The notes below the pieces were generated by a model. That model was not told where the DNA came from. It ran no database searches and saw nothing but the letters and a program-made list of their open reading frames with translations. From positions 567 through 64,566 of the forward strand of contig JALWJZ010000016.1 of the NCBI GenBank assembly GCA_026996855.1: a stretch of 64,000 nt of DNA, given 5' to 3'. The stretch comes from Anaerolineales bacterium. GTDB lineage: Bacteria > Chloroflexota > Anaerolineae > Anaerolineales > DRMV01. Positions 26,867 through 41,311 of this stretch are shown one piece after another (the first letter of the stretch is position 1; each line of letters starts with the position of its first letter). The translations under genes and the position numbers were made by a program.

Positions 26867-27019
26867 GGGAGAAACGACAAAGCGGTTGCTTGGTTGCCAG
26901 CGGCCGTTGCGTTGTCCTTGGTAAAAAGAGCCATCCATGCATCGCATACGGTGCGACGCGAACCTTCGCCAAGGGAGCTATTCCCGGGGTGGCAATCCCC
27001 TTCGTCGAGGTTGGTCATC

Positions 27020-27763
27020 ATGCGAAAAGGTCGGCCCGTTTTGTATGCCCTGGCGTTCATGGGTTTCTTCCTGTTGGCCGGGTGTGGTGCGTTCGTGGGT
27101 AAAAGGGAGGGTACACCTACGGTGTTTTGGCTTCCCACCCTGCCGGTATCCACTGCCACGCCCACCGTGCCTCCCACCTTCGTGCTTCCGGCGGGGAAAG
27201 AGGTGCTCTTTTTCGACGATTTTTCCAATCCGGAGCAGGGTACCTGGCCCACTCGTTACGGCCCTTGGGGGGCTATGGGGTACATGGCAGGCGGCTATCG
27301 CATGACCGTCTCCCTGGCCCGGACGGATGTGTGGGCCGTGGCCGGCCTGCCGCCCCTGGACGATGTGCGGGTCGAGGTGGATGCGGTCGCGGTAAGCGGC
27401 TCCGAATACAACTCCTTTGGCGTCCTTTGCCGTTACCAGGATGACGACAACTTTTATTTCTTCGTGGTGAGCAACGCGGGTTTTTATTCCATCATCAAGA
27501 AGGAAGGAGGGGACCAGTACCAACTCCTCCCCGAACGTCAGTTCGCACGGCGGGATGTCATTCGTCCGGGGGGGCAGGTGAACCGGGTGCAGGGAGAATG
27601 CGTGGGGAACACCCTGCGTTTGTACGTGAACGATGTCCTCCTGGCCGAGGTGCGGGATGAACGTACCCCCCTGCCCCCGGGGGATGTGGGCATCCTGGCC
27701 GGGGCTTTCACCGACGCGGGGGTGGTCATTCACTTTGACAATTTCCTGGTGATACGTCCATGA
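27020..27763 (+). CDS. lipoprotein with a concanavalin/DUF1080-like beta-sandwich domain
   Basis: Lipobox FFLLAGC. C-terminus is ..LRLYVNDVLLAEV..GDVGILAG..HFDNFLV. SD is GAGGT. Confidence 0.6.
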   Translation: MRKGRPVLYALAFMGFFLLAGCGAFVGKREGTPTVFWLPTLPVSTATPTVPPTFVLPAGKEVLFFDDFSNPEQGTWPTRYGPWGAMGYMAGGYRMTVSLARTDVWAVAGLPPLDDVRVEVDAVAVSGSEYNSFGVLCRYQDDDNFYFFVVSNAGFYSIIKKEGGDQYQLLPERQFARRDVIRPGGQVNRVQGECVGNTLRLYVNDVLLAEVRDERTPLPPGDVGILAGAFTDAGVVIHFDNFLVIRP

Positions 27764-27794
27764 AAAAAAGCGGGCCTTCTCTGGCCCGCTTTTT
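27763..27794. terminator. bidirectional intrinsic terminator between the lipoprotein gene and leuA
   Basis: aaaaaaa-gcgggcc-ttctct-ggcccgc-ttttt. Confidence 0.8.
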
Positions 27795-29417
27795 CTAAAC
27801 CTCCCGCCGCAGGGCGGCCACCACTTTGTTCAGTGCGGTCAGGTAGGCTTTGGCACTGGCTTTGATGATGTCCGTATCCGCGCCGTAACCGCCGAAGGCC
27901 CGCCGCCGGACGCGGCCCGTCTGGGGGGAAGCAGTCTCACCTGTTTCTTCGATGCGGGGTTCCAGGCGCACCGTGACCTCGCCCACCGCGTCAATGCCTT
28001 CGGTGACGGCATTCACCACATACTCGATGAGCACGGTGGGCACCCCCACGATGTTGTCAATGGCTTTGAAGGCGGCATCTACCGGGCCGGTGCCCATGGC
28101 CGTGGCCGTGTATTCCTCGTCGTCCGGCCCCCGTAAACGCACCGTGGCCGTGGGCATCCCCGTGCCTGCAATGACTTGCAGGGCCTCCAGTTGGAAGAGT
28201 TCCTCTTCGGGGCTGATGGACCGCTCTTCCGAAACCAGGGCAATCAAGTCGGCGTCGGTGATGCTCTTCTTCCGGTCGGCCAGGCGTTTGAAACGCTGGA
28301 AGACGTCGTCCAGTTCCTCCCGGGAGAGTTTGTACCCCAACTCTTCCAGCCGCACCCGCAGCGCGTGGCGCCCGGAATGTTTCCCCAGCACCAGTTTGGA
28401 CTGGGGCCAGCCCACCGTTTCCGGCCGCATGATTTCGTAGGTTTGATGGTGTTTGAGCATGCCGTCCTGGTGAATGCCGGCTTCGTGGGCAAAGGCATTG
28501 GCCCCCACGATGGCTTTGTTAGGCTGCACGGGCATACCGGTAATGCGGGAGACCAATCGACTGGTCTTGACGATTTGGGTGGTGTCAATGCCCGTTTCCA
28601 GGCCAAAGAAATCCCGCCGTACCCACAGGGCCATGACGACTTCTTCCAGCGCGGTGTTGCCCGCACGTTCGCCGATGCCGTTGATGGTGACTTCGGCCTG
28701 CCGTGCGCCAGCCATCAGGCCTGCCAGGGTGTTCGCAGTGGCCAGACCCAGGTCGTTGTGGCAGTGCACGGAGACCACCACGTTCTCAATACCGGGCACG
28801 TTCTCCATGATGCCCTTGATGAGGTCGTAGAACTGCCAGGGCGTGGTGTAGCCCACGGTATCGGGGATGTTGATGGTGGTCGCGCCGGCTTCGATGGCCA
28901 CGGCCAGCACTTCGTACAGGAATTCGGGGTCGCTACGCCCCGCGTCTTCGGGGGAAAATTCCACGTCTTCGCACAGCGATTTGGCATAAGCGACCATGTC
29001 CCGCACCCGTTGCACCACCTCCTGTGGGGTCATACGCAGTTTGTACTTCATGTGAATGGGCGAGGTGGCCAGGAAAGTATGGATGCGGGGATAGGTCGCA
29101 TGGCGCACCGCTTCCCAGGCTTTGTCGATGTCTTCTTTCGTGGCGCGGGCCAGGCCCGCGATGATGGGCACGTGTCCGCCGTTGCGCGAGGAAGGGTTCC
29201 CCACCTCGATGGCAATGCGGCGGACGGCCTCCAGGTCGTCGGGGGAGGCTGCGGGGAACCCGGCCTCGATGACGTCCACCCCCATGCGGGCCAGTGCGCG
29301 AGCAATTTGCAGTTTCTCCGACGAGGTCATGGTCGCGCCGGGCGATTGTTCCCCGTCCCGTAAGGTGGTATCGAAAATGCGCACGTAATTGGGGTTGCGT
29401 TTGGGGTCGCGAATCAT
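27795..29417 (-). CDS. leuA: 2-isopropylmalate synthase
   Basis: [44 protein letters not shown] at 29417 follows AAAGGAGGTG. The longer track ORF is read-through across the repeat spacer. Confidence 0.95.
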
Positions 29418-29437
29418 GGTTGCACCTCCTTTGGGGG

Positions 29438-29535
29438 AGTGGTCAGTGAACAGGAGTGAGGGGTGAGCAGTCAGCAGTGGGCAGTCAGCGAACTGCCGAC
29501 CGCAGACCGCGGACTGCCGGCTGCTGATTGCCGAC
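29438..29535. repeat. heptamer tandem array (14 units) in the ilvC-leuA spacer
   Basis: agtggtc agtgaac .. agcagtc agcagtg ggcagtc agcgaac tgccgac cgcagac cgcggac tgccggc tgctgat tgccgac. Internal hairpin 29475-29485 / 29494-29504. Confidence 0.9.
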
Positions 29536-29539
29536 CGCG

Positions 29540-30562
29540 CTATATCTCCCATCGCTCCGGGTCCACCTCCACAGGGTCGAGGAAGGGCATCATACGGCGC
29601 AGGCGACGGCCCACCGCTTCGATGGGGTGTCGGGCTTCTTCGCGACGCTTTTGGTTGAACCAGGGTCGTCCTTTGGCATTTTCCTCGATCCATTCCCGAG
29701 CGAAGGAGCCGTCCTGGATGGCCTGGAGCACCTCCCGCATGGTCTGGCGCACGTGCTCGTCGATGATGCGTGGGCCGACTTTGTAGTCGCCGTATTCCGC
29801 GGTGTCGGAAACCGAGTACCGCATGTAGGTCAGGCCGCCCCGGTAGAGCAGGTCCACGATGAGTTTGAGTTCGTGCAGGGTTTCGAAATAGGCCAGTTCG
29901 GGCTGGTATCCGGCTTCCACCAGGGTTTCGAACGCGGCCTTGATGAGCGCGGTCACACCGCCGCACAGCACCGTTTGCTCGCCGAAGAGGTCGGTTTCGG
30001 TTTCCTCTTTGAAGGTGGTCTCCAGTACGCCGGCACGGGTACATCCGATGCCCCAGGCGTAGGCCAGGGCCACGTCTCGGGCCTGGCCGCTGGCATCCTG
30101 ATGCACGGCCAGAAGGGCCGGTGTGCCCGCTCCCTGGGTGAAGAGTTCCCGCACCCGGTGGCCCGGGGCCTTGGGCGCGACCATGCTCACGTCCACAAAG
30201 GCCGGCGGACGGATGGTGCCGTAATGGATGTTGAAGCCGTGGGCGAACATGAGGGTCTGGCCTTCCCGCAGGTGAGGTTCGATGGCCTCGGTGTACACCC
30301 GGGGCTGGACCGTATCCGGAAGCAGCACCATGACCACGTCGGCCCATTGCACCACATCGGGAATGGTGCCGACCGTCAGGCCCTGGGCCTCGGCCCGGTC
30401 CCAGGAAGGGCTGCCGGGCCGTAAACCCACCCGTACCTGGATGCCGCTATCCTTCAAGTTCAGCGCGTGCGCGTGGCCCTGAGAGCCAAACCCCAGTACC
30501 GCCACTTTGCGTTCCAGGATGGCCTGGGGGGAAACGTCCGTATCGTAATACATGCGAGTCAT
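29540..30562 (-). CDS. ilvC: ketol-acid reductoisomerase
   Basis: [42 protein letters not shown]. Confidence 0.95.
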
Positions 30563-30576
30563 GAGAAGCCTCCTTG

Positions 30577-30680
30577 GTGGGGATGTGGAATGAATGGGGA
30601 TATGCGAATGAGCGGATATGCGAATGGGCGGATGAGCGAATATGCGAATATGCGGATATGCGAATGGGCGGATGGGTGGA
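30577..30680. repeat. octamer tandem array (about 13 units, T[AG][TG]GCG[AG]A) upstream of ilvC
   Basis: tatgcgaa tgagcgga tatgcgaa tgggcgga tgagcgaa tatgcgaa tatgcgga tatgcgaa tgggcgga tgggtgga. Confidence 0.9.
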
Positions 30681-30693
30681 AGGACGGCGTTGT

Positions 30694-32400
30694 TCATTCG
30701 GCGCGCAGGCAGGCAGGGTCCGTTTCGGGGGGAAGGAGCAGGATGCCGGATTCCAGTTGCTTCCACACCCGAAAACCGGCCTGGCGCAAATCCTGGAGCA
30801 GCACTTCGGCCCAGGCGCGCTCCTCTTCCAGTTGCACGTTTTCGTCCATGAGGACCAAAACCAGGGCGCACGTGCCCTGGGTGCGCTGGGCCAGGTCTTT
30901 GGCCCAATCTTCGGGGGTGGTATAGGGCACAGGGTGACACTCGCCCTGCACGGGGTTGCAGTAAAAGGCCCGGCCTTCCCGCCACACCGGCCGGCCCCGG
31001 AGCCGGAAAGCGGGTCGGTCGGCGTAGTACAGGGTTTCTTCGCGTTCGTTGGTGTACACCGGCACCTTGGGGGGCAGGCTGCGGAGCGCCGGCCATGCGT
31101 CCAGGGTTTGCCATCCTTCGCCCCTGAGCAGAGCGCCGGCCCGGTGCCAGCGTCCCAGCAGGAAAAACTCGTCGTCCACCTTGGCGGTGCGCATCATGTG
31201 CACCCATGCCCACAGAAGCACCAGGGCCAGGGGCCACCACCGGGCCAGGGCAAACCAAGCGGCCACGCCTGCCAGCAGGGAAAGGGCCAGGTGTTCCGGC
31301 GCCAGAAGCCGCCAGTCCATGGGCGTGGAAGCATCCAGGAAGGCAATGGCCGCGACCAGGCCCAGGGCGTACAACACCGCAAAACTCCCCCAGCGCACGA
31401 AGAAGGCCTCCAACGGCACCAGGTTCCGTTTCCTTTGGGGGAAGGCCGGGGCCTGGATACGCGCCAGGAACACCAGCAGCCCCAGGCCCACCAGCAGCCC
31501 GGCGCTTCGTACCACCGCTTCTTGTGGAGTGAAGGTGCGGTAATGGGGCACCAGCCAGGAAGCCAGGGTGTACGCGGCCTGCAACCAGCGCTGGGTATCC
31601 GGGGGGTGCCATCCCAGGGTGCGGGAGGCCACCGCGCCGTCGGCCAGGCGGGAGGCCAACATCAGCCCCAAAATGGGCCCTCCCGAGGCGGCGAGAAAGG
31701 CCCCTACTTGTTGCTTCCATCCGGTGGGTCGCTGCTTCCTCCAGGTCCAGGCCAGGTAAACCAGCGTCCAAGCCGGCAAGACGAGGCCCAGCCAGCGGTT
31801 GCTCACCGACCAGGCCGCCAACAGTCCCGTCAACACGGACCGGGAGGGGCCAGGCCGCTGCCGCCAGCGTTCCATGGCCCAGGCCGTGGCCATGATTTGC
31901 GCCAGGAACAGGGCTTCGCTCCACACCCCCGCGAACATGCGGAGTAGGTGGAAGGAGACCCCCAGCCAGAGGACCGTGGTCGCGGTGGGGAACAGGTGCC
32001 GGGTGGCGCGATACACCTCGTACGCGGCCAGGGCCAGCACGAGGGCCAGGCTGGCCATGTTCACGGCCAGGGCCGCCAGGGCTTCATCGCCGTGGGTGAA
32101 GGTCATGAACACGGCAATGGCCAGGGGGTAACCGGGCGGGAAATGGCTTACAGGGTCCAGGCCTCCGTGGGGAAGGGGAAAGCCATAGCGCCCTCGCCGG
32201 TGGAGTTCCCGGGCCAGAACCAGGTAAGTCAGCCCGTCGGAATTGGCTCCCGGTCCCCAGTTCTCCGTGGCTTTGTACACCAGTCCCAGTCCCAGCCCGA
32301 TGGCGGCCAGGGTCACAAGCGCCACCGGCAGGGGATGCTCCCATAGGGGATGGTTGCGAAAGCGTTCCCAAAGGGCTTGGCCGGGCAATCGCCAGGTCAT
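30694..32400 (-). CDS. polytopic membrane protein, GT-C (ArnT/PMT)-like, with a C-terminal soluble domain
   Basis: [37 protein letters not shown].. then about 11 TM segments and a ~170-aa tail. Start chosen at the internal ATG 32400. Confidence 0.45.
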
Positions 32401-32438
32401 GGTGGTTCCCGCAGGAAGAAGTGGGGGCTTTCCCGGTT

Positions 32439-34868
32439 CTACACGGCGGGCACTTCGGGCGGCGCGGTTTCCATGCCCTGGGAGGGCCCAGCGCCGTCGT
32501 CGCCGTTCCCTTGTTCCCGTACCAGTCGAGCGAAGGTTTCCAGCCGTTTGGCCACCGCGTGGTGGAAGGTGCCTTCGGGAAAGGTCCCATCGGGTTGGCG
32601 CTGGCCCGGTTCCATCCCCGTCAAAAGGCCGATGGCCTCGTCGATGGTCTCGACGGCCCAGATATGGAAGCGGCCTTCCCGCACGGCTTCCACCACCTCT
32701 TCCCGGAGCATAAGGTGTTTTCGATTGGCCTTGGGGAGAATCACGCCCTGGGTGCCCGTCAGGCCCAGGGCTTTGCACGTGGCAAAGAACCCTTCGATTT
32801 TCTCGTTCACCCCGCCCACGGCCTGGATGTTGCCGTGCTGGTCCACCGAACCGGTGATGGCCACGTCCTGCCGCAGGGGGATTTGGGCGATGGCGGAAAG
32901 CAAAGCCAGCAACTCCGCAGCCGAAGCGCTGTCGCCTTCCACCCCTTCGTAGGATTGCTCGAAGGTGATGCGCGCGCTCAAACTCAGCGGCCCCAGGTGG
33001 CCGTACTGGTGGCCCAGATAGCCCCCCAGAATGAGCACGCCCTTGGTGTGAATGGGGTCGCCCAGTTCCGCCTGTTTTTCGATGTCCACCACCTCGCCCC
33101 GGCCTGGGGCTGCGGTCGCGGTGATGCGCACCGGCCGACCGAAGGCATAATCGCCCAAGAAAATCACGGCCAGGCCGTTCATTTGGCCCACGGTTTCGCC
33201 TTCCACCTTCACCCGGAAGACGCCTTCCCGGATGATTTCCCGGATGCGTTCCTCCAGGTAGTTGGCGCGGTAGATGCGGGCTTCTTCGGCCTGGCGCAGG
33301 TCCTCCGCGGTGATGACTCCCCGCTGGTTTTGCCCGGCCCAGTAGGCGGCTTCCCGCAGGTAGTCGGTCAGCAGGCCGAAACGGGTGGAGAGTTTGTCTT
33401 GATGCCCGGCCAGCCGGGAGCCGATTTCCACCAGGCGGGCCACCGCGGTGGCGTCCAGCGGCGGTAGGTTTTCCGTGGCCTGGGCGATGCGGGCAAAGAG
33501 GGCGTACTCTTTTTCCGTTTCAGGGGTGCGGGGCATGTCCAGCGCGAACTCGGCCCGCACTTTGAACAGTTTGGGAAAATCTTCATCGTAACGGCGGAGC
33601 AGGTAGTAGAGCAAAGGCGAACCGATGAGCACCACTTTGGTTTCCAGGGGCACGGGTTCGGGTTCCAGGGTCACGGTGGTGATGAGGCTCAGGTCCGCGG
33701 CCAGTTCGATGATGCGCACCCGGCCTTCTCGTAAGGCGCGCTTCAGGCCGTACCAGGCGTAGGGGAGCAGGAGCACATCCAGAGCAGGAAGCACCAGATA
33801 CCCGCCCGCAGCCCGATGAAGCGCGCCGGCCCGAATCAAAGTATGGTCGGTGCGGGTCACGCCCATGACCACTTCGTGTTCGATGCGGCCCAACAGGTTG
33901 CCATACGAGGGGTGGTTTTCCACCACCACGGGCGCGCCTTTCAAGTCGCCGTTGTCCACGACCACGTTTACCTGATACCGGCGGGACCATACTTCCCACT
34001 GCGCTTCGGGGATTTTGCCCTCGGCCAGGTCCAAAAACGCTTTCCGATTGCGCACGATGTCTTCCTGCACGGCTTGCAGGTACGCCGAGACGCCTTCCAC
34101 CGGGCCGTGTTTCTTTTCCAATTCCTCTACCAGGTGTTCCACTACGAAAGTGGTGGTGCGCCGGTCCAGTTCTTCGAAGGCTTTGCGGGCTTTCTCTTCG
34201 ATTTCCCGGAGGCGGCGCAGGGTCTTTTTGATTTCCTCTTCCAGTCGGGCCTTGGCTTCCTCTCGTTGCTGGTCTTCTTCTGGGGATTCGGGCGTTTGCT
34301 CGCCTTCACCGCCGTCGGTGGCCGGTACCAGGGCAAAGCCAAAGGGGGTTTCCACCAGGTTGAAGCCCTCGTCCTGGGCTTTTTTCTTGAGTTTGCGCAT
34401 TTCTTGTTGTTGGCGCTTCTGCACCGTCTGGGCAATACGTTCCCGGGCCTGGCGGTAAGAGTCGCTTTGGAAAGCCCGCGGCAGTTCACGGCGGCAGGCT
34501 TCGAGCAGGCGTTGCATATCCTGGGCAAAGGCGCGGCCCTGCCCCGGTGGAAAGCGCAAGGCCTGGGGCCGTTTGGGGTCTTGGAAGTTGTACACATAGG
34601 CCAGATCGGGAGGAGTGGGCTGTTGTGCGGCCTGCTCTTGCAAAAAGCGCACAGTGAGGGAGAGCCGACCCGAACCGGGCCAGCCCAGTACGAACATGTT
34701 GTAACCTTTGGAGGGAATGCCGCTCCCTACCTTGAGGGCCTGGAAGGCCCGGGGCTGGCCGATGGGGCGAAACTCCAGGGGCAGTTCCTCGGTGGTCTGA
34801 AAGCCCAAGGCTCTTGGGTCGCAGGTTTTGCGCAGCATTTCAGGACCGAGTTCGGGAATGTTGGTCAT
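32439..34868 (-). CDS. LonC-type Lon-like protease with degenerate Walker A
   Basis: P-loop position reads GWPGSGRLS (no Lys). Long coiled-coil insertion. Lon protease domain YEGVEGDSASAAELLALLSA..VGGVNEKIEGF. SD is GAGGAGGTG. Confidence 0.8.
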   Translation of the reverse strand: MTNIPELGPEMLRKTCDPRALGFQTTEELPLEFRPIGQPRAFQALKVGSGIPSKGYNMFVLGWPGSGRLSLTVRFLQEQAAQQPTPPDLAYVYNFQDPKRPQALRFPPGQGRAFAQDMQRLLEACRRELPRAFQSDSYRQARERIAQTVQKRQQQEMRKLKKKAQDEGFNLVETPFGFALVPATDGGEGEQTPESPEEDQQREEAKARLEEEIKKTLRRLREIEEKARKAFEELDRRTTTFVVEHLVEELEKKHGPVEGVSAYLQAVQEDIVRNRKAFLDLAEGKIPEAQWEVWSRRYQVNVVVDNGDLKGAPVVVENHPSYGNLLGRIEHEVVMGVTRTDHTLIRAGALHRAAGGYLVLPALDVLLLPYAWYGLKRALREGRVRIIELAADLSLITTVTLEPEPVPLETKVVLIGSPLLYYLLRRYDEDFPKLFKVRAEFALDMPRTPETEKEYALFARIAQATENLPPLDATAVARLVEIGSRLAGHQDKLSTRFGLLTDYLREAAYWAGQNQRGVITAEDLRQAEEARIYRANYLEERIREIIREGVFRVKVEGETVGQMNGLAVIFLGDYAFGRPVRITATAAPGRGEVVDIEKQAELGDPIHTKGVLILGGYLGHQYGHLGPLSLSARITFEQSYEGVEGDSASAAELLALLSAIAQIPLRQDVAITGSVDQHGNIQAVGGVNEKIEGFFATCKALGLTGTQGVILPKANRKHLMLREEVVEAVREGRFHIWAVETIDEAIGLLTGMEPGQRQPDGTFPEGTFHHAVAKRLETFARLVREQGNGDDGAGPSQGMETAPPEVPAV

Positions 34869-35034
34869 GCGGCACCTCCTCGAGACGGTTCCATTGTACT
34901 CCATCTCGAGGGGGAAGGGGCCGAACCGGGGCCAACTTCCCGGTTGGCGTTCTTTTGGTTTGTCAAGGTGCCGTTGACGGCCGAACGGACCTCGGCCTTT
35001 GGTACGCCTTTTCGTCCCGTATGCCCAGGACCCA

Positions 35035-35580
35035 TCAAACCGTAGGGCGATGGCCGTTGGCCCCGGGCAGATGGCGGTGACCGGCCGCCATGCCACGGGT
35101 CATGGCCACGTGGCCGGTGCGCACCACTTCCACCAGGCCCGCGGGCCGGAGCAGGTCGATGAGGCTGTCCACCTTTTCCGGCGCGCCCGTGATTTCCACC
35201 GTGACCGTCTCAGGGGAAACGTCCACGATGTTGGCCCGGTACACCGCGGCCAGGTTGATGATCTCCGTGCGCTGGCCCGGCGGCGCTTTCACCTTGATGA
35301 GGGCCAGTTCCCGCACCACCGCGGGCCGGTCGGTCACATCCTGCACGTCCAGCACGTTCACCAACTTGTACAGGTTGGCCTCGATGAGATGGGCCTTCTC
35401 GTCCTCGATGTCCACCACGATGGTCATGCGGGAAACCCGGGGGTCCTGGGTGGTGCCCACGTTCAGGGAGTGGATGTTGTAATTCCGCCTGCGGAACAGG
35501 GACGCCACCCGGTTCAGCACCCCGGGCTTGTTCTCCACCCAGGCGATGAAAATGTGGGGTCGGGGACCATTGGGGTTCAT
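35035..35580 (-). CDS. ilvN: acetolactate synthase small (regulatory) subunit
   Basis: HIFIAWVENKPGVLNRVASLFRRRNYNIHSLNVG ACT domain. Confidence 0.9.
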   Translation of the reverse strand: MNPNGPRPHIFIAWVENKPGVLNRVASLFRRRNYNIHSLNVGTTQDPRVSRMTIVVDIEDEKAHLIEANLYKLVNVLDVQDVTDRPAVVRELALIKVKAPPGQRTEIINLAAVYRANIVDVSPETVTVEITGAPEKVDSLIDLLRPAGLVEVVRTGHVAMTRGMAAGHRHLPGANGHRPTV

Positions 35581-35598
35581 GGGACACCTCCAGGAGGG

Positions 35599-35661
35599 AG
35601 TGGACAGTGGACAGTGGTCAGTGGTCGGCTAACGGCTATCGGCTATCGGCTATCGGCTAAC
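35599..35661. repeat. heptamer tandem array (9 units) in the ilvB-ilvN spacer
   Basis: agtggac agtggac agtggtc agtggtc ggctaac ggctatc ggctatc ggctatc ggctaac. Contains the ilvB stop (35650-35652). Confidence 0.9.
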
Positions 35662-37359
35662 CACTTCCCCCGCCGGCCTCCGAATCATCTCGTGCAGGGA
35701 GACACCCGAGGGCACCATGGGGAAGACGTGCTCCTCCTGTTCCACCACGAACTCCAGGACCACGGGGCCTGGATGTTCGCGGGCGAAGGCCACGGCCTGG
35801 GGAATCTGCCCCCGTTCCGTCACCCGCATGGCGGGGATGCCGTAGGCCTTCGCCAGTTGGACGAAATCCGGGTTGTGCATGAGCACCGCGGAGTAGCGTT
35901 TCTCGTAAAAGAGTTCCTGCCACTGCCGCACCATGCCCAGGTAGTTGTTGTTGACGATGACCACTTTCACGTTGGCCCCCTCCTGCACCGCGGTGGCCAG
36001 TTCCGCCTGGGTCATCTGGAAGCCGCCGTCGCCCTCGATGACCCACACCTCTTTTTCGGGATGGGCGAACCAGGCCCCGATGCCCGCGGGCAGGCCAAAG
36101 CCCATGGTTCCCAGCCCACCCGAGGTGATGAGCCGGTAGGGTTGTTCCAGTTTGTAGTACTGGGCGGTCCACATCTGATGCTGGCCCACCCCCGTGGCGA
36201 TGATGACCTCCTGGCCCGCGGTGGCCTTCCACAGGTCGTGGATGGCCTGGGCGGCCCGCAACGGTCCGGGCTGGTTGCGGTAGAGGATGTCCCGCCGGCG
36301 GGTATCGGCCTTCCAGGATTCGATTTGGTCCCACCAATCTTCGGGCTGTTTGGGTTCCACCAGGGGGATGAGGTCCTGCAGCACGGCCTTCAGGTCGCCC
36401 AGCAGGGCCACGTCCGCGCGCACGTTCTTGTGGATTTCCGCGGGGTCGATTTCCACGTGGATGACCTTCGCGTGGGGCGCGTAGGTCTCCAGTTTGCCCG
36501 TCACCCGGTCGTCGAAGCGCATCCCCAGCGCGATGAGCAGGTCCGCGTGCTGGATGGCCATGTTGGTGTAATACTCCCCGTGCATCCCCATCATCCCCAG
36601 GCTCAGGGGGTGGGACGCGGGCAGCACGCCCAGGCCCAGCAGGGTCATGGCCACGGGGGCCTGGAGTTTCTCCGCGAGTTGGCGCAGTTCTTCCATGGCC
36701 CCGGACATGAGCACGCCCTGCCCCGCGAGGATGACGGGCCGCTCCGCTTCCGCGATGAGCCGGGCCGCGCGTTCCAGGTCCTGGGGGTCGGCCTTTTCCG
36801 GGGGATGGTAGCCGGGCAGGTCCACCCGTTCGGGCCAGGACCATTCGGCTTCCTCAATCTGCGCGTTCTTGCACAGGTCGATGACCACCGGGCCGGGCCG
36901 TCCCGTGCGGGCGATGTGGAAGGCTTCCCGCACCACGCGGGGGATATCCTCTGCGCGGGTGACCAGGTAGTTGTGCTTGGTGATGGGCAACGTGATGCCC
37001 GTGATGTCCGTTTCCTGGAACGCGTCGCTCCCCAGGAGGGAAGCCGATACCTGGCCGGTAATGAAGACCACGGGGGACGAATCCATGCGGGCCGTGGCGA
37101 TGGCCGTGGTGAGGTTGGTCGCGCCGGGGCCGGAGGTGGCCATGGCCACGCCCACTTTGCGCCTGTGCCGCAGCGCGCGGGCGTAGCCGTCGGCCGCGTG
37201 GCCCGCGGCCTGCTCATGGCGGGTGAGCACGTGCTTCACGGGGTAATCCAGCATGGCATCGTACACGGGCATGATGGCCCCACCGGGGTACCCAAAGACC
37301 ACCTCCACGCCTTCCCGGATGAGGGCTTCCCACAGCAGGCGAGCACCGGACATCTTCAT
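35650..37359 (-). CDS. ilvB: acetolactate synthase large subunit
   Basis: MKMSGARLLWEALIREGVEVVFGYPGGAIMP..GGLGTMGFGLPAGIGA. ATG at 37359 follows GGAGGTG. Confidence 0.95.
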   Translation of the reverse strand: MKMSGARLLWEALIREGVEVVFGYPGGAIMPVYDAMLDYPVKHVLTRHEQAAGHAADGYARALRHRRKVGVAMATSGPGATNLTTAIATARMDSSPVVFITGQVSASLLGSDAFQETDITGITLPITKHNYLVTRAEDIPRVVREAFHIARTGRPGPVVIDLCKNAQIEEAEWSWPERVDLPGYHPPEKADPQDLERAARLIAEAERPVILAGQGVLMSGAMEELRQLAEKLQAPVAMTLLGLGVLPASHPLSLGMMGMHGEYYTNMAIQHADLLIALGMRFDDRVTGKLETYAPHAKVIHVEIDPAEIHKNVRADVALLGDLKAVLQDLIPLVEPKQPEDWWDQIESWKADTRRRDILYRNQPGPLRAAQAIHDLWKATAGQEVIIATGVGQHQMWTAQYYKLEQPYRLITSGGLGTMGFGLPAGIGAWFAHPEKEVWVIEGDGGFQMTQAELATAVQEGANVKVVIVNNNYLGMVRQWQELFYEKRYSAVLMHNPDFVQLAKAYGIPAMRVTERGQIPQAVAFAREHPGPVVLEFVVEQEEHVFPMVPSGVSLHEMIRRPAGEVVSR

Positions 37360-37373
37360 GGGGCACCTCCTTT

Positions 37374-37450
37374 TCGTTGGTGGTCGTTGGTCGGTGGTCG
37401 TCAGTCCACAGTTAACCATCGACTATCGACCGTCGACCATCGACCATCAA
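37374..37450. repeat. heptamer array (11 units) forming an imperfect palindrome across the ilvD stop
   Basis: tcgttgg tggtcgt tggtcgg tggtcgt cagtcca cagttaa ccatcga ctatcga ccgtcga ccatcga. Arms 37385-37405 / 37418-37438. Confidence 0.9.
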
Positions 37451-39115
37451 AATCGCGCCCTGGTCCGCGCTGGTGACGAAGTGGGCGTAGCGGCGCAGCC
37501 AGCGGCTGGTGGTGCGGGGCTGGAAAGGCGGCAGGGCCTCCAGCCGACGGCGGATTTCGTCGTCGGAAAGGTGGACGTCGATGCGCCGCGCGTCCAGGTC
37601 GATGGTGATGAGGTCGCCATTCTGCAGGGCCGCGATGGGGCCACGGGCCGCGGCCTCGGGACTGATGTGGCCCACGCACAGGCCGCGGGTGCCGCCGGAA
37701 AAGCGTCCGTCGGTGATGAGCGCGACCTTTTCCCCCAGGCCCATGCCCACGATGGCCGAGGTGGGCGCGAGCATCTCCTGCATCCCCGGCCCGCCCCGGG
37801 GCCCCTCGTAGCGGATGACCGCCACATCCCCCGGCTGCACTTCCCCGGCCAGGATGCCTTGCATGGCTTCTTCCTGGCTTTCGTAGATGCGGGCCGGGCC
37901 GGTGTGGCGGCGAATATGGGGGGCAACGCCTCCCGTTTTGATGACCGCGCCCTTGGGCGCCAGATTCCCGAAGAGCACCGCCAGGCCGCCATCGGGCCGC
38001 AAGGGGTCCTCCACGGGCCGGATGACCTGGGCATCCCGCACCCGGGCCTGGGCGATGTTCTCGGCCAGGGTCTTCCCCGTCACGGTGATGCGGTCGGGGT
38101 GCAGCAGGCCGTGCCGGGCCAGTTCCGCGAGCACCGCGGGCACGCCGCCCGCGGCGTGCAGGTCCTCCATGTGCCAGGGCCCCGCGGGGCTCATGTGGGC
38201 CAGGTAGGGGGTGCGGTCGGCCACCGCGTTGATGCGCTCCAGGGGGTAATCCAGGCCGGCCTCGTGCGCGAGGGCCAGCAGGTGGAGCACGGTGTTGGTG
38301 CTGCCGCCCAGGGCCATATCCAGGGCAAAGGCGTCGTCGATGGCTTCGGGGGTGATGATGTCCCGGGGCCGCAGGTCCCTCCGCACCAGGTCCATGATGC
38401 GGTGCCCGGCTTCCCGGGCCAGGGCTTCTCGTTCGGGGGATTGGGCCAGCGCGGTGCCGTTGTAGGGCAGCGCAATGCCCAGGGCTTCCATGAGGCAGTT
38501 CATGGAGTTGGCCGTGAACATGCCCGAACAGGAGCCGCACGCGGGGCAGGCCACGCGTTCCAGTTGGGCCAGTTCCTGCTCGGTGATGTGCCCGGCCTGG
38601 AGCGCGCCCACGCCCTCGAACACGCTGATGAGGTCCACCACCCGGCCGTCGGGCATCCGGCCCGCGGGCATGGGCCCGCCGGAGACGAACACCGCGGGGA
38701 TGTTCACCCGCACCGCGGCCATGAGCATCCCGGGCACGATTTTGTCGCAGTTGGGGATGGCCACCATGCCGTCGAACGCGTGGGCCTGGAGCATGGTTTC
38801 CACGCTGTCCGCGATGAGCTCCCGGGAGGGCAGGCTGTACTTCATGCCCTCGTGGCCCATGGCGATGCCGTCGTCCACCGCGATGACGTTGAACTCGAAG
38901 GGCACGCCCCCGGCTTCCCGGATGGCCTGCTTCACGATTTGGGCAAATTCCCGCAGGTGCACGTGGCCGGGGACGATGTCGGTGTAGGAATTCACCACCG
39001 CGATGAAGGGCTTGTGGAAATCCTCGGGGGATTGGATGGCTCCCGTGGCCCAGAGCAGCGCCCGATGGGGCGCCCGTTCGTAACCGTTCTTGATGATGGT
39101 GGAACGCATGGTCAT
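37412..39115 (-). CDS. ilvD: dihydroxy-acid dehydratase
   Basis: [42 protein letters not shown]. Confidence 0.95.
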
Positions 39116-39124
39116 GGCTCTACT

Positions 39125-39160
39125 CCAAAAAAGAGGGCCGCTCCGGTGTGGAGCGGCCCC
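39125..39160 (-). terminator. attenuator terminator immediately upstream of ilvD
   Basis: Perfect 10-bp stem gggccgctcc (39135-39144) / ggagcggccc (39150-39159), followed on the minus strand by tcttttttgg. Confidence 0.8.
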
Positions 39161-39184
39161 GAAGTGGCAGGTTGTACCCTGGCG

Positions 39185-39292
39185 TTACATGCGCCCCGCT
39201 GCCGCTCCACCGCGCGAAATGCCCAGGACCAGGATAAGAAGGCCCAGGGCGAAAAGAGCGGCGGTAAAGCGGACTTCGAAGCGCGAGAACAT
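39185..39292 (-). CDS. ilv-leu leader peptide (35 aa) MFSRFEVRFTAALFALGLLILVLGISRGGAAAGRM
   Basis: GGAGG lies 6 nt upstream of ATG 39292. Contains a run of six consecutive Leu/Ile/Val codons (LLILVL). Its 3' end overlaps the antiterminator segment. Confidence 0.6.
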   Translation of the reverse strand: MFSRFEVRFTAALFALGLLILVLGISRGGAAAGRM

Positions 39293-39318
39293 GGGCATCC
39301 TCCGTAGTGTGGCTCCCC

Positions 39319-39346
39319 AGTATAGGGGGAAACGGATTTTCCGCAA
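39319..39346 (-). promoter_or_regulatory. candidate promoter of the ilv-leu operon
   Basis: The minus strand reads TTGCGG - 16 nt - TATACT, about 20 nt upstream of the leader SD. Confidence 0.4.
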
Positions 39347-39393
39347 CGGCAGATTGCACATCGTTTTACCGGAATATCTGTGCAAACGGCTGT

Positions 39394-40059
39394 TCAGCGT
39401 TCGCGCAGCGCTTCGGGTACGGGGCAGTGGTATTGCCAGGCTTCCCGGCAGCGGGCCGTGATAGGGCGCAAGGGCACGCCGGTTCGGCGGTGCAAAGCCC
39501 GAAGCACGTGGCACACGGGCAGGCCCACCACGTTGGCGAAACAGGCGACAGGTCCCAGGCGGGCCACGGGTTGGAAGGGTCGGTCCTGGATGCCGTATGC
39601 GCCGGCTTTGTCCAGGGCCGCGCCGGAGGTGATGTACTGGTGGATTTCGCCCTGCGTGTAGTCCCGCATGTACACCTGGGTGGACACCACTTCGGTGTGC
39701 TCCCAGGCGTCGTCCCAGGGGCGCAGGGTGAAGCCGGTCAGCACCCGGTGCCTGCGGCCGCGCAGGGCCTGGAGCATGGCCTGGGCTTCCTGGGGTGTGG
39801 CGGGTTTACCCAGGATGCGCCCTTCCAGCACCACCGCGGTATCCGCGGCCAGCACCACCCAGCGGGCCGGGATGGTTCCCACGGCATGGGCCTTGGTTTG
39901 GGCCAACCGGGCCACGTAGTCCTCGGGCGTTTCGCCCGGCATGGGGGTTTCGTCCACTCGGGCCGGTTGTACCCGCAAAGGCAGGCCCAGCCACCGGGCC
40001 AGTTCCTGGCGGCGGGGTGAAGCGGAGGCGAGAAGGAGGCCGTGAATCGCGGGGGACAT
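39394..40059 (-). CDS. maf: Maf-like nucleoside triphosphate pyrophosphatase
   Basis: LLLASASPRRQELA..VLAADTAVVLEGRILGKP..KAGAYGIQ. Confidence 0.85.
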   Translation of the reverse strand: MSPAIHGLLLASASPRRQELARWLGLPLRVQPARVDETPMPGETPEDYVARLAQTKAHAVGTIPARWVVLAADTAVVLEGRILGKPATPQEAQAMLQALRGRRHRVLTGFTLRPWDDAWEHTEVVSTQVYMRDYTQGEIHQYITSGAALDKAGAYGIQDRPFQPVARLGPVACFANVVGLPVCHVLRALHRRTGVPLRPITARCREAWQYHCPVPEALRER

Positions 40060-40132
40060 GCGGGTCACCTCGATGGGGATGAAAAAAAGGCGTCCCCAGC
40101 TCGGGGACGCCTTTTCGCACCGGAGAGGAGGG

Positions 40133-41311
40133 TTATTCCTCGATGGGCCAACCGGTGGGGATTTCACCGGCCTCCAGGCCCTTGCGGATTTCCTCCAACT
40201 TGTCCTTCACTTCCTGCGGGATGGCGTCTTCAAAGTCGTGGAAGGGGGCCAGGCCCACGCCGCCGTAGTAATTGCCCGCAGGGAAGTTGCCTTCCTTGGC
40301 CATCTTGATGAGGTCGAACACACCGGGGGTGATGAGTTTCATGGCGCTGGTCACCAGGCAGGGCCGGGCCTCGGGCACGGTGTACCACTGGTCGGTGTCC
40401 ACGCCGATGCAGTACACCTCTTTGCCGGCCTTGGCCGCTTCGGCCACTTCGATGAGCGCGCCATTGCCCGTCTTGCCGCCGGCGCCGAAGATGACGTCAT
40501 AGCCCTGGTCGATGAGCTGTCGCGCGGTGGCCGCGCCCCACTCAGGGTCGGTGAAGGCCACGTCCAGACCGCCGGGGTGGTAGATGACCTTGGCTTCCAC
40601 GTTCTCGTTCACGTACTTGGCACCATTGATATAGCCGGTGCCGAAAGCCTTCACGGGCGGCACCAGGTCCGTGCCCAGCACGCCGGCAATCTTGTTGGTC
40701 TTGGTAATCATGCCTGCCAGCGCGCCGGCTAGGAAGCCCGCGCGGTCCTCGTGGAAGATGAGGCCGGCCACGTTGGGCAGGTCGTTGCCCGTGTCATCGT
40801 CCACGGCCCAGGCCTGGAATTGGTCCACACCGATGAAGTAGACCTCGGGGAATTCCTTGGCCATGGTTTGGGTGGCTTCGCCCAGGGCAAAGCCCACGGT
40901 CACGATGACGTCGAAGCCGTTCTCCGCGAAGAGGCGAATGTTGGCCTCGTAGTCCTTGGGGTCCTTGGTCTCGATGTAATCCACATAAGCCCCCAGTTCT
41001 TCTTTGGCCTTGAGCACGCCTTCCCAGGCCGACTGGTTGAAGGACTTGTCGTCGATTTCACCCACGTCGGTCACCAGGCCCACGCACAGCACGTCGGGAC
41101 TGGCGCAATCGGGCATTTCGCCTTCTTCCGCGGCTTCGGTGGGTTCTTCGGTGGCCTTGGGAGCCTCTTCGGTCATGGCCGGCGCCTCGGTGGCTTTGGG
41201 GGCTTCTTCGGTCATGGCCGGGGCTTCGGTGGGCGTCGGTGTGGCCTTCTCGCAGGCGGCCAGCCCCAGGGCCAGCGCCAACACGGTCAGAAGAATCATC
41301 CACTTGCGCAT
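40133..41311 (-). CDS. BMP family (PnrA/Med-like) ABC transporter substrate-binding lipoprotein
   Basis: Lipobox LGLAAC, with GLVTDVGEIDDKSFNQSAWEG..GVDQFQ. SD is GAAGGAGGAG. Confidence 0.85.
   Translation of the reverse strand: MRKWMILLTVLALALGLAACEKATPTPTEAPAMTEEAPKATEAPAMTEEAPKATEEPTEAAEEGEMPDCASPDVLCVGLVTDVGEIDDKSFNQSAWEGVLKAKEELGAYVDYIETKDPKDYEANIRLFAENGFDVIVTVGFALGEATQTMAKEFPEVYFIGVDQFQAWAVDDDTGNDLPNVAGLIFHEDRAGFLAGALAGMITKTNKIAGVLGTDLVPPVKAFGTGYINGAKYVNENVEAKVIYHPGGLDVAFTDPEWGAATARQLIDQGYDVIFGAGGKTGNGALIEVAEAAKAGKEVYCIGVDTDQWYTVPEARPCLVTSAMKLITPGVFDLIKMAKEGNFPAGNYYGGVGLAPFHDFEDAIPQEVKDKLEEIRKGLEAGEIPTGWPIEE
41147..41224. repeat. 39-nt tandem duplication within the lipoprotein linker (EAPAMTEEAPKAT x2)
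   Basis: 41147-41185 and 41186-41224 are near-identical. Confidence 0.8.

Follow-up and report, generated by a model that had tools for sequence, protein, structure and literature searches.

Does a bacterium outside the Proteobacteria control its branched-chain amino acid genes through a translated leader peptide and a switchable terminator? The question is raised by the DNA in front of ilvD on the minus strand of a 64,000-nucleotide (nt) stretch of contig JALWJZ010000016.1 from an Anaerolineales bacterium (the whole of this stretch is called the window below). An earlier reading made from the letters alone (the sequence-only reading) had placed here a leader-peptide attenuator of the classical kind known from Proteobacteria, had assigned to it a whole 11.5-kb ilv-leu operon, and had named two computational checks, namely folding of the leader and a search for the same elements upstream of ilvD in related genomes. 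Both were carried out. From the sequence features described below, we consider it highly probable that the element is a ribosome-mediated transcription attenuator of ilvD-ilvBN(-ilvC-leuA), predicted to be functional and multivalent. The closest public ilvD loci, that of Bellilinea caldifistulae among them, are labelled Anaerolineales, Anaerolineae or Chloroflexi and reach 73% identity, and the genome is for this reason judged to be non-proteobacterial, as had been suspected from its sequence.

An Ile/Leu/Val-rich reading frame and a strong terminator precede ilvD

The spacer between a Maf-family gene and ilvD carries the whole leader unit (coordinates are collected in Table 1). It contains a promoter candidate (TTGCGG and TATACT hexamers 16 nt apart), a Shine-Dalgarno (SD) sequence and a 35-codon open reading frame (ORF) with six consecutive Leu/Ile/Val codons, and all of these were found where the sequence-only reading had put them. 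Ten of the 35 residues are Leu, Ile or Val (6 Leu, 2 Ile and 2 Val), and the leader stop codon lies 69 nt from the ATG of ilvD. The products of ilvD, ilvB, ilvN, ilvC and leuA, which are all encoded on the minus strand like the leader, serve the synthesis of Leu, Ile and Val, and this matches the mixed codon run. CUU makes up 3 of the 6 leader Leu codons, compared with about 12% of the Leu codons in the long ORFs of the genome, an enrichment that lends the stalling model a weak supporting detail.

Downstream of the ORF, at 39160-39134 and 8 nt ahead of the ilvD SD, there is a terminator hairpin with a free energy of -24.9 kcal/mol. It is the sole terminator-like site in 38800-39700, and no other minus-strand site between 27000 and 40500 (13.5 kb) comes near it in strength. 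The perfect pairing of its two arms and the U tract behind them had been described correctly, with the correction that the stem has 11 bp and not 10 bp. When the 191-nt leader was folded, its minimum free energy was -96.4 kcal/mol versus -71.4 +/- 4.3 kcal/mol for 200 dinucleotide shuffles (z = -5.8), and none of the 200 was as good; the leader region is far from random.

Four segments that can pair with one another in mutually exclusive ways had been proposed for this leader, and we located all four, base for base. Segments 2 and 3 form the antiterminator as expected: 39210-39201 is perfectly complementary to 39157-39148 over 10 bp, and the 2:3 domain, folded without segment 4, reaches -32.6 kcal/mol. 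A pairing between segments 1 and 2 also exists, but it is not the 7-bp helix at 39262-39256 that had been suggested. In the minimum-energy fold it is formed by 12 bp farther 5', between 39272-39261 and 39213-39202, and it is lengthened by an outer stem. Most of the regulatory codons fall in the loop that separates segment 1 from segment 2, some of them within the loop of a smaller inner hairpin. This inner hairpin may act as a pause site and so keep ribosome and polymerase in step. Small hairpins with CUU-AUU-CUU in the loop recur in many Anaerolineae leaders, as in GGUCCUUAUUCUUAAGGACC, which is followed by a U-rich stretch.

Read in this way, the locus appears to hold each component expected of an attenuator: an SD and an ORF before a biosynthesis operon, cognate codons, a terminator, a 2:3 antiterminator and a 1:2 anti-antiterminator.

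The promoter proposal held in part. Both hexamers are present, and a TAnAnT hexamer recurs in six relatives: TATACT, TACAAT or TATAAT was seen by eye about 30-80 nt ahead of the leader ATG in 6/6 family relatives with upstream DNA. The -35 is weaker, and a consensus scan was silent (see below). We therefore treat the pair of hexamers as a candidate leader promoter with a good -10 and a weak -35. In five relatives (L085, L086, L087, L096 and L103) an A/T-rich conserved motif, AAAATTTTAAGRTTC, is found about 20-25 nt 5' of the TACAAT or TATAAT -10; it is shortened to GTTTTAAGATTC in L103 and is not present in this locus or in L084. The motif may represent an UP element together with a -35, or else the site of a regulator.

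The leader unit is conserved upstream of ilvD

For comparison we assembled the DNA ahead of ilvD, at most 450 nt per locus, for 80 public loci and for kin genomes, and scored a leader unit where a short ORF had at least 9 Ile, Leu or Val in 12 residues and was followed, within 110 nt past its stop codon, by a hairpin and a T run. An Ile/Leu/Val-rich ORF together with a terminator stands before ilvD in 45/50 of the closest ilvD loci, whose labels are nearly all Anaerolineae, Anaerolineales or Chloroflexi. The same holds for 13 of the 14 kin loci, and this bears out the conservation that the sequence-only reading had asked about. The unit is also carried by two cultured relatives, Bellilinea caldifistulae GOMI-1 (locus L005) and Ornatilinea apprima P3M-1 (L040). 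As a background, the regions upstream of other long ORFs of this genome contain an Ile/Leu/Val-rich ORF in 21 cases out of 1309 (1.6%), and none of the 1309 has both the ORF and a terminator. The leaders of the relatives have 9-12 such residues per 12-residue window; the best window of the present leader scores 8/12, just below the threshold.

The pairing between leader and terminator is conserved as well. In 56 of 64 loci the pairing of the 3' part of the leader with the 5' arm of the terminator exceeds that of 95% of dinucleotide shuffles (mean z of -3.1), and in 59/64 the 3' end of segment 2 precedes the leader stop codon, by 3-31 nt (median 15, typically 10-20). Terminator sequences differ by clade (GGCCGCUC.., GAGCCGCCC.., GGGCUGCCC.., ACCGCCCGG.. 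and GCCUCCC.., the family of this locus having the GGCCGCUC type), and segment 2 changes along with them. Within that family, helix 2:3 covaries at two aligned positions (C-G/U-A/G-C at one and A-U/G-C/C-G at the other), and a third position shows C-G versus G-C. These counts were made on anchored segments, since a global MAFFT alignment misaligned segment 2 of one sequence, and the anchor and row of L103 were set by hand. For helix 1:2, pairing exceeds that of shuffles at p <= 0.005 in 5/7 family members and is weakly backed in the wider class, where 28% of the loci reach p <= 0.05. The sequence elements, their mutual exclusivity, their conservation and their covariation are established, and with these hallmarks kept and covarying upstream of ilvD in relatives, the classical attenuation logic that had been put forward for this locus is supported.

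The leader peptide resembles a single transmembrane helix, and it could be supposed that it is a real small hydrophobic membrane peptide, the hairpin being an ordinary constitutive or partial terminator of the peptide gene or of the maf transcript, with ilvD expressed by leak-through or from another promoter; the lack of any terminator found between the maf stop (39394) and the leader would suit such an arrangement. The comparison speaks otherwise. Only the hydrophobic run is kept, and this within one family, while length and other residues vary: the leader peptides MFYLFSDRFLVLFMVQVLFLLGLILVLGPFCAGAVRGRAP, MFSLIAVLALLILVLLVLTLEASAAGARAVWVYEVRP, MMFAALALVLIVLFILVLLGREALARTRAVAALRG and MPSTRVVSLQVLGLLLGLLVLEEETMRAGGSVSSPR have little in common past that run. 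The residues at the C-terminal end follow the pairing that the RNA makes with the terminator arm, and a Pfam search with the leader peptide gave no match. Further, the unit stands directly before ilvD irrespective of the gene upstream; as that gene varies among relatives, the terminator belongs with ilvD and not with maf. In the 8 nt ahead of the ilvD SD there is neither space nor signal for a separate ilvD promoter. We regard a membrane peptide with an unrelated terminator as very improbable.

Proposed mechanism of ribosome-mediated attenuation

Translation of the leader, stalling of the ribosome, the start site, amino-acid-dependent read-through and the downstream reach of the control are what we infer from the elements described above. 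Transcription would start probably about 20 nt before the leader ATG, and a ribosome would load at GGAGG/AUG and translate the 35 codons as RNA polymerase advances. As long as charged tRNAs for Leu, Ile and Val abound, the ribosome should reach the UAA at 39187-39185, where segment 2 (39213-39201) would lie within the ribosome or re-pair behind it with segment 1 (39272-39261). Segment 3 would then be free to pair with segment 4, and the terminator with its U tract would stop transcription at 39133-39127. A shortage of any one of these charged tRNAs is predicted to make the ribosome stall within L13-I25, whose core is LLILVL. A stall at L13 would cover segment 1, and at other stalls the ribosome, sitting between segments 1 and 2, may keep the two apart. 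Segment 2 could then capture the newly made segment 3 (10 bp) before segment 4 is synthesized, and 1:2 could not easily close around the ribosome; with the terminator blocked, the polymerase would read into ilvD.

Within 39121-39167, the minimum-energy fold joins the ilvD SD (GGAGU, 39126-39122) to ACUUC, directly 5' of the terminator stem at the base of the hairpin. L084 may have a comparable CUUCC/GGAGG pairing. Such pairing might add translational damping. It could even be thought that control is mainly translational, with the alternative structures gating the ilvD SD, and in some attenuators an SD sequestor does replace the terminator (PMC9413887). The pairing at this locus, however, is a mere 5 bp, and a canonical G+C-rich stem followed by six consecutive U, the hallmark of transcriptional termination, is found here and in nearly all relatives. 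We find mainly translational control hardly credible for this leader.

Reach of the control within the gene cluster

In five kin genomes the operon is contiguous, ilvD-ilvB-ilvN-ilvC-leuA, and about 7 kb long. In this genome, the only one in which we found such an interruption, ilvN is split from ilvC by 4.2 kb (30694-34868), which encode a LonC-like protease and a large 569-residue membrane protein inside the operon. The LonC-like gene has orthologues in two kin genomes, where the flanks of about 1.4-1.5 kb contain none of the operon genes, and in one of the two the orthologue is on a contig other than that of the ilv operon. Given the uninterrupted operons and the orthologues elsewhere, the insert appears to be specific to this genome, or shared with close kin whose contigs end early. 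In the scan of 27000-40500 no strong terminator was found on the minus strand inside the cluster, and therefore read-through into the insert and the distal genes would be allowed. At 34898-34893 on the minus strand, 12 nt ahead of the SD (AGGAGG) of the LonC-like gene, lies a TACAAT hexamer that could serve as an internal promoter and may have been brought in with the insert. TACAAT is also a hexamer that family relatives use as the -10 of their ilv leader. A lone TTGACA is present at 34966-34961, with no matching -10.

The insert invites a bolder thought, that stalling on Leu, Ile or Val codons also switches on the inserted protease. If true, proteolysis or envelope remodelling would be coupled directly to the supply of branched-chain aminoacyl-tRNA. 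A second unusual feature would be a ribosome that works as a wedge in the 1:2 loop and not by covering segment 1. We think this reading unlikely.

Table 1. Positions of the leader elements, the genes of the cluster and other sites (positions are those of the window, except where a contig is named)
Feature	Positions	Strand	Sequence or remark
Spacer, maf stop to ilvD ATG	39394 to 39115	minus	278 nt; carries the whole leader unit
Candidate -35	39346-39341	minus	TTGCGG; read from sequence, putative promoter role
Candidate -10	39324-39319	minus	TATACT; 16-nt spacer from -35, putative
Leader SD	39303-39299	minus	GGAGG; 6 nt ahead of ATG at 39292
Leader ORF	39292-39185	minus	MFSRFEVRFTAALFALGLLILVLGISRGGAAAGRM; 35 codons + UAA (39187-39185)
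Segment 1	39272-39261	minus	CCGCUUUACCGC; leader codons 7-11; 5' arm of anti-antiterminator
Segment 1 of the sequence-only reading	39262-39256	minus	GCCGCUC
Regulatory codon block L13-I25	39256-39218	minus	LFALGLLILVLGI
Inner hairpin	39250-39221	minus	GCCC.GGGCC / GGUCC.GGGC; 10-nt loop with CUU-CUU-AUC-CU
Core run L18-L23 (LLILVL)	39241-39224	minus	CUU CUU AUC CUG GUC CUG
Segment 2	39213-39201	minus	GCGGUGGAGCGGC; inside leader codons 27-31; partner is segment 1 or segment 3
Segment 2, stretch pairing with segment 1	39213-39202	minus	GCGGUGGAGCGG; 12-bp partner
Segment 2, core	39210-39201	minus	GUGGAGCGGC; leader codons 28-31
Terminator	39160-39134	minus	GGGGCCGCUCC-ACACC-GGAGCGGCCCU; 11-bp stem, 9 G-C pairs, 5-nt loop
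Segment 3	39160-39148	minus	terminator 5' arm GGGGCCGCUCC (39160-39150) and first loop bases
Segment 3, portion pairing with segment 2	39157-39148	minus	GCCGCUCCAC
Segment 4	39144-39134	minus	terminator 3' arm GGAGCGGCCCU; GGAGCGGCCC is 39144-39135
U tract	39133-39127	minus	CUUUUUU; UCUUUUUU is 39134-39127
ilvD SD	39126-39123	minus	GGAG
Maf-family gene	stop 39394		upstream of leader
ilvD (dihydroxy-acid dehydratase)	39115-37412	minus	NCBIfam TIGR00110, 823 bits; first gene after leader
ilvB	about 37359-35650	minus	NCBIfam TIGR00118
ilvN	35580-35035	minus	NCBIfam TIGR00119
LonC-like protease gene	34868-32439	minus	Pfam LonC_helical, AAA_32, Lon_C
Gene for 569-residue large membrane protein	32403-30694	minus	no family match
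ilvC	30562-29540	minus	NCBIfam TIGR00465
leuA	29390-27795	minus	NCBIfam NF002086
T-box-like matches	C111:14428-14604; C15:60437-60767; C69:32448-32570; C95:33786-33935		other contigs of this genome

Weighing ribosome control

Several results count against the attenuator as we propose it. At this locus the 1:2 pairing is only borderline when compared with shuffles (p = 0.055). If the ribosome footprint is assumed to be 28 nt, segment 1 is covered when L13 occupies the A site, but a ribosome stalled at L18-L23 in the 1/2 loop covers neither segment 1 nor segment 2; at the leader stop codon it only touches the 3' end of segment 2. When the footprint was masked in equilibrium folding, 1:2 plus 3:4 persisted, with no shift to 2:3. 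The -35 candidate matches TTGACA at 3/6 positions, and the consensus promoter scan called no promoter at the leader. The TACAAT ahead of the LonC-like gene could be an internal promoter, and attenuator control of ilvC-leuA across the 4.2-kb insert is conjectural; with this insert and its possible own promoter, the control of a whole 11.5-kb operon claimed in the sequence-only reading is not supported. Finally, in Streptomyces coelicolor, alteration of the candidate regulatory codons of the ilvB leader is reported to have left regulation unaffected, and the same paper cautions that leaders of this type do not work by the classical mechanism in every case (PMC1262725).

As for the masked fold, since it keeps 1:2 together with 3:4, the switch would have to be kinetic or steric. 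Classical attenuators all switch in one of these two ways. For a kinetic switch, a masked equilibrium fold that stays in 1:2 plus 3:4 is the expected outcome and carries little information.

The unmasked segment 1 at an L18-L23 stall and the Streptomyces coelicolor result would both sit well with a switch that is real but set by an RNA-binding protein, a tRNA or a small ligand, the Ile/Leu/Val-rich ORF being incidental or modulatory. We looked for such elements by running cmscan on 38500-40000 against the 4227 families of Rfam 15, and even at E <= 10 no leader, T-box (RF00230) or riboswitch family was returned. None of the Rfam leader models (Leu_leader, Thr_leader, His_leader RF00514, Trp_leader and Leu/phe leader) matched at the locus. 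The sub-threshold hits, suhB (25 bits, cut-off 41) and Xoo2 (25 bits, cut-off 45), are chance matches driven by the terminator. T-box-like matches do occur elsewhere in this genome and count in favour of such a trigger: four were found, all on other contigs and below the Rfam cut-off (30-58 bits versus 93), so that T-box-type and leader-peptide control may both be in use here. At the ilvD leader itself, the family alignment has no conserved unpaired core resembling a ligand pocket, and the Ile/Leu/Val-rich ORF is kept with its start at the frequencies given above (45/50 and 13/14 loci) though its sequence drifts. Segment 2, moreover, lies within the last codons of the ORF, a position that is sensible only if translation matters. 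A trigger other than the ribosome thus seems to us quite improbable.

Comparison with known attenuators

The leaders of ilvGMEDA (ilvL) and of ilvBN (ivbL) in E. coli and Salmonella are cases of multivalent Ile/Leu/Val attenuation. The present leader resembles them in the size of the peptide (about 32-35 residues) and its mixed run of Leu/Ile/Val codons, in the alternative 1:2, 2:3 and 3:4 pairings among which a stalled ribosome would favour the antiterminator, and in an intrinsic terminator directly ahead of an ilv operon that contains ilvD. It differs from them in its host (Chloroflexota, class Anaerolineae), in the gene order ilvD-ilvBN-ilvC-leuA, and in showing no sequence or Rfam-model similarity. 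Also, most of the regulatory codons are here between segments 1 and 2, whereas in ilvL and ivbL they are inside segment 1.

Outside the Proteobacteria, leader-peptide attenuators or candidates are known in Actinobacteria (PMC1262725, PMC10272879, PMC11857589) and Firmicutes (PMC5794164, PMC9413887). The ilvB leaders of Corynebacterium, Mycobacterium and Streptomyces likewise have a short ORF with a run of Ile/Val/Leu codons before ilv genes, and a terminator that follows or overlaps it (PMC1262725, PMC10272879, PMC11857589). In those leaders the first gene is ilvB and not ilvD, the sequences are unrelated, and certain components of the attenuator are absent or of disputed function (PMC1262725), whereas here the four segments are present and covary. 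The ilv-leu operon of Staphylococcus aureus, again non-proteobacterial, is preceded by a branched-chain-rich leader peptide, described as a leucine-rich attenuator peptide acting together with CodY (PMC5794164).

The sequence-only reading had called the finding notable for lying outside the Proteobacteria. The host does lie outside the Proteobacteria, but given the actinobacterial and firmicute cases (PMC1262725, PMC5794164, PMC9413887) this is less striking than it was made to appear. A full-text literature search, with a 2010 cross-phylum survey (PubMed 20198868) outside its reach, found no ilvD leader attenuator described for Chloroflexi/Anaerolinea. The element is real and of an ordinary kind, very probably a textbook ribosome-sensing attenuator in a lineage-specific version. 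The conceptual gain is accordingly small, a textbook mechanism being carried to another phylum, as has already been done for Actinobacteria and Firmicutes. It does provide a concrete and testable model of branched-chain amino acid regulation for the Anaerolineae, which are widespread, have few cultured members and offer almost no experimental data on gene regulation. The Anaerolineae ilvD leader family, which is in neither Rfam nor the literature searched, could also enter annotation pipelines; its short leader ORFs and terminators are at present unannotated. Of all the parts, only the lineage-specific insertion of a LonC-like protease gene in the attenuated operon might open up something new.

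Other candidates and variants of the leader unit

We scanned the whole genome for a terminator, a short ORF with a codon run and a gene downstream. Only the ilvD leader was conspicuous in this crude scan, which would miss ORFs that are leaderless or lack an SD. Two other candidates were discarded: a Phe-rich one on contig C97 proved to be the C-terminal part of a longer ORF that has a terminator of its own, and an Ile/Leu/Val-rich one on C12 looks like a small pilin-type protein.

Upstream of ilvD in more distant loci, labelled Ignavibacteria, Calditrichia, Bacteroidetes and others, there are ORFs of 45-60 codons with an Ile/Leu-rich tail (...IIIGISIIISLLGIILS; L051-L053, L062-L063, L065, L068, L070-L073, L075 and L078-L079). 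Our terminator filter, which is biased to G+C-rich stems, found few terminators at these loci of other phyla. In two order-level relatives (L090 and L095), an extra small ORF of about 40-70 codons, such as MNEEFTPQADLSYDGVPGEPVVTPEAEAAQWVSDAMFDAYNG, lies between the leader terminator and ilvD. Finally, seven Anaerolineae loci (L009, L035, L039, L044, L048, L049 and L092) have two Ile/Leu/Val-rich leader ORFs in tandem before ilvD, each with a separate terminator behind it. The first of the two reads M..LVLVLIVIVLVILGG... and the second ...LLLALEKE... in L039, L044 and L049. The tandem arrangement suggests duplicated or two-stage attenuation.

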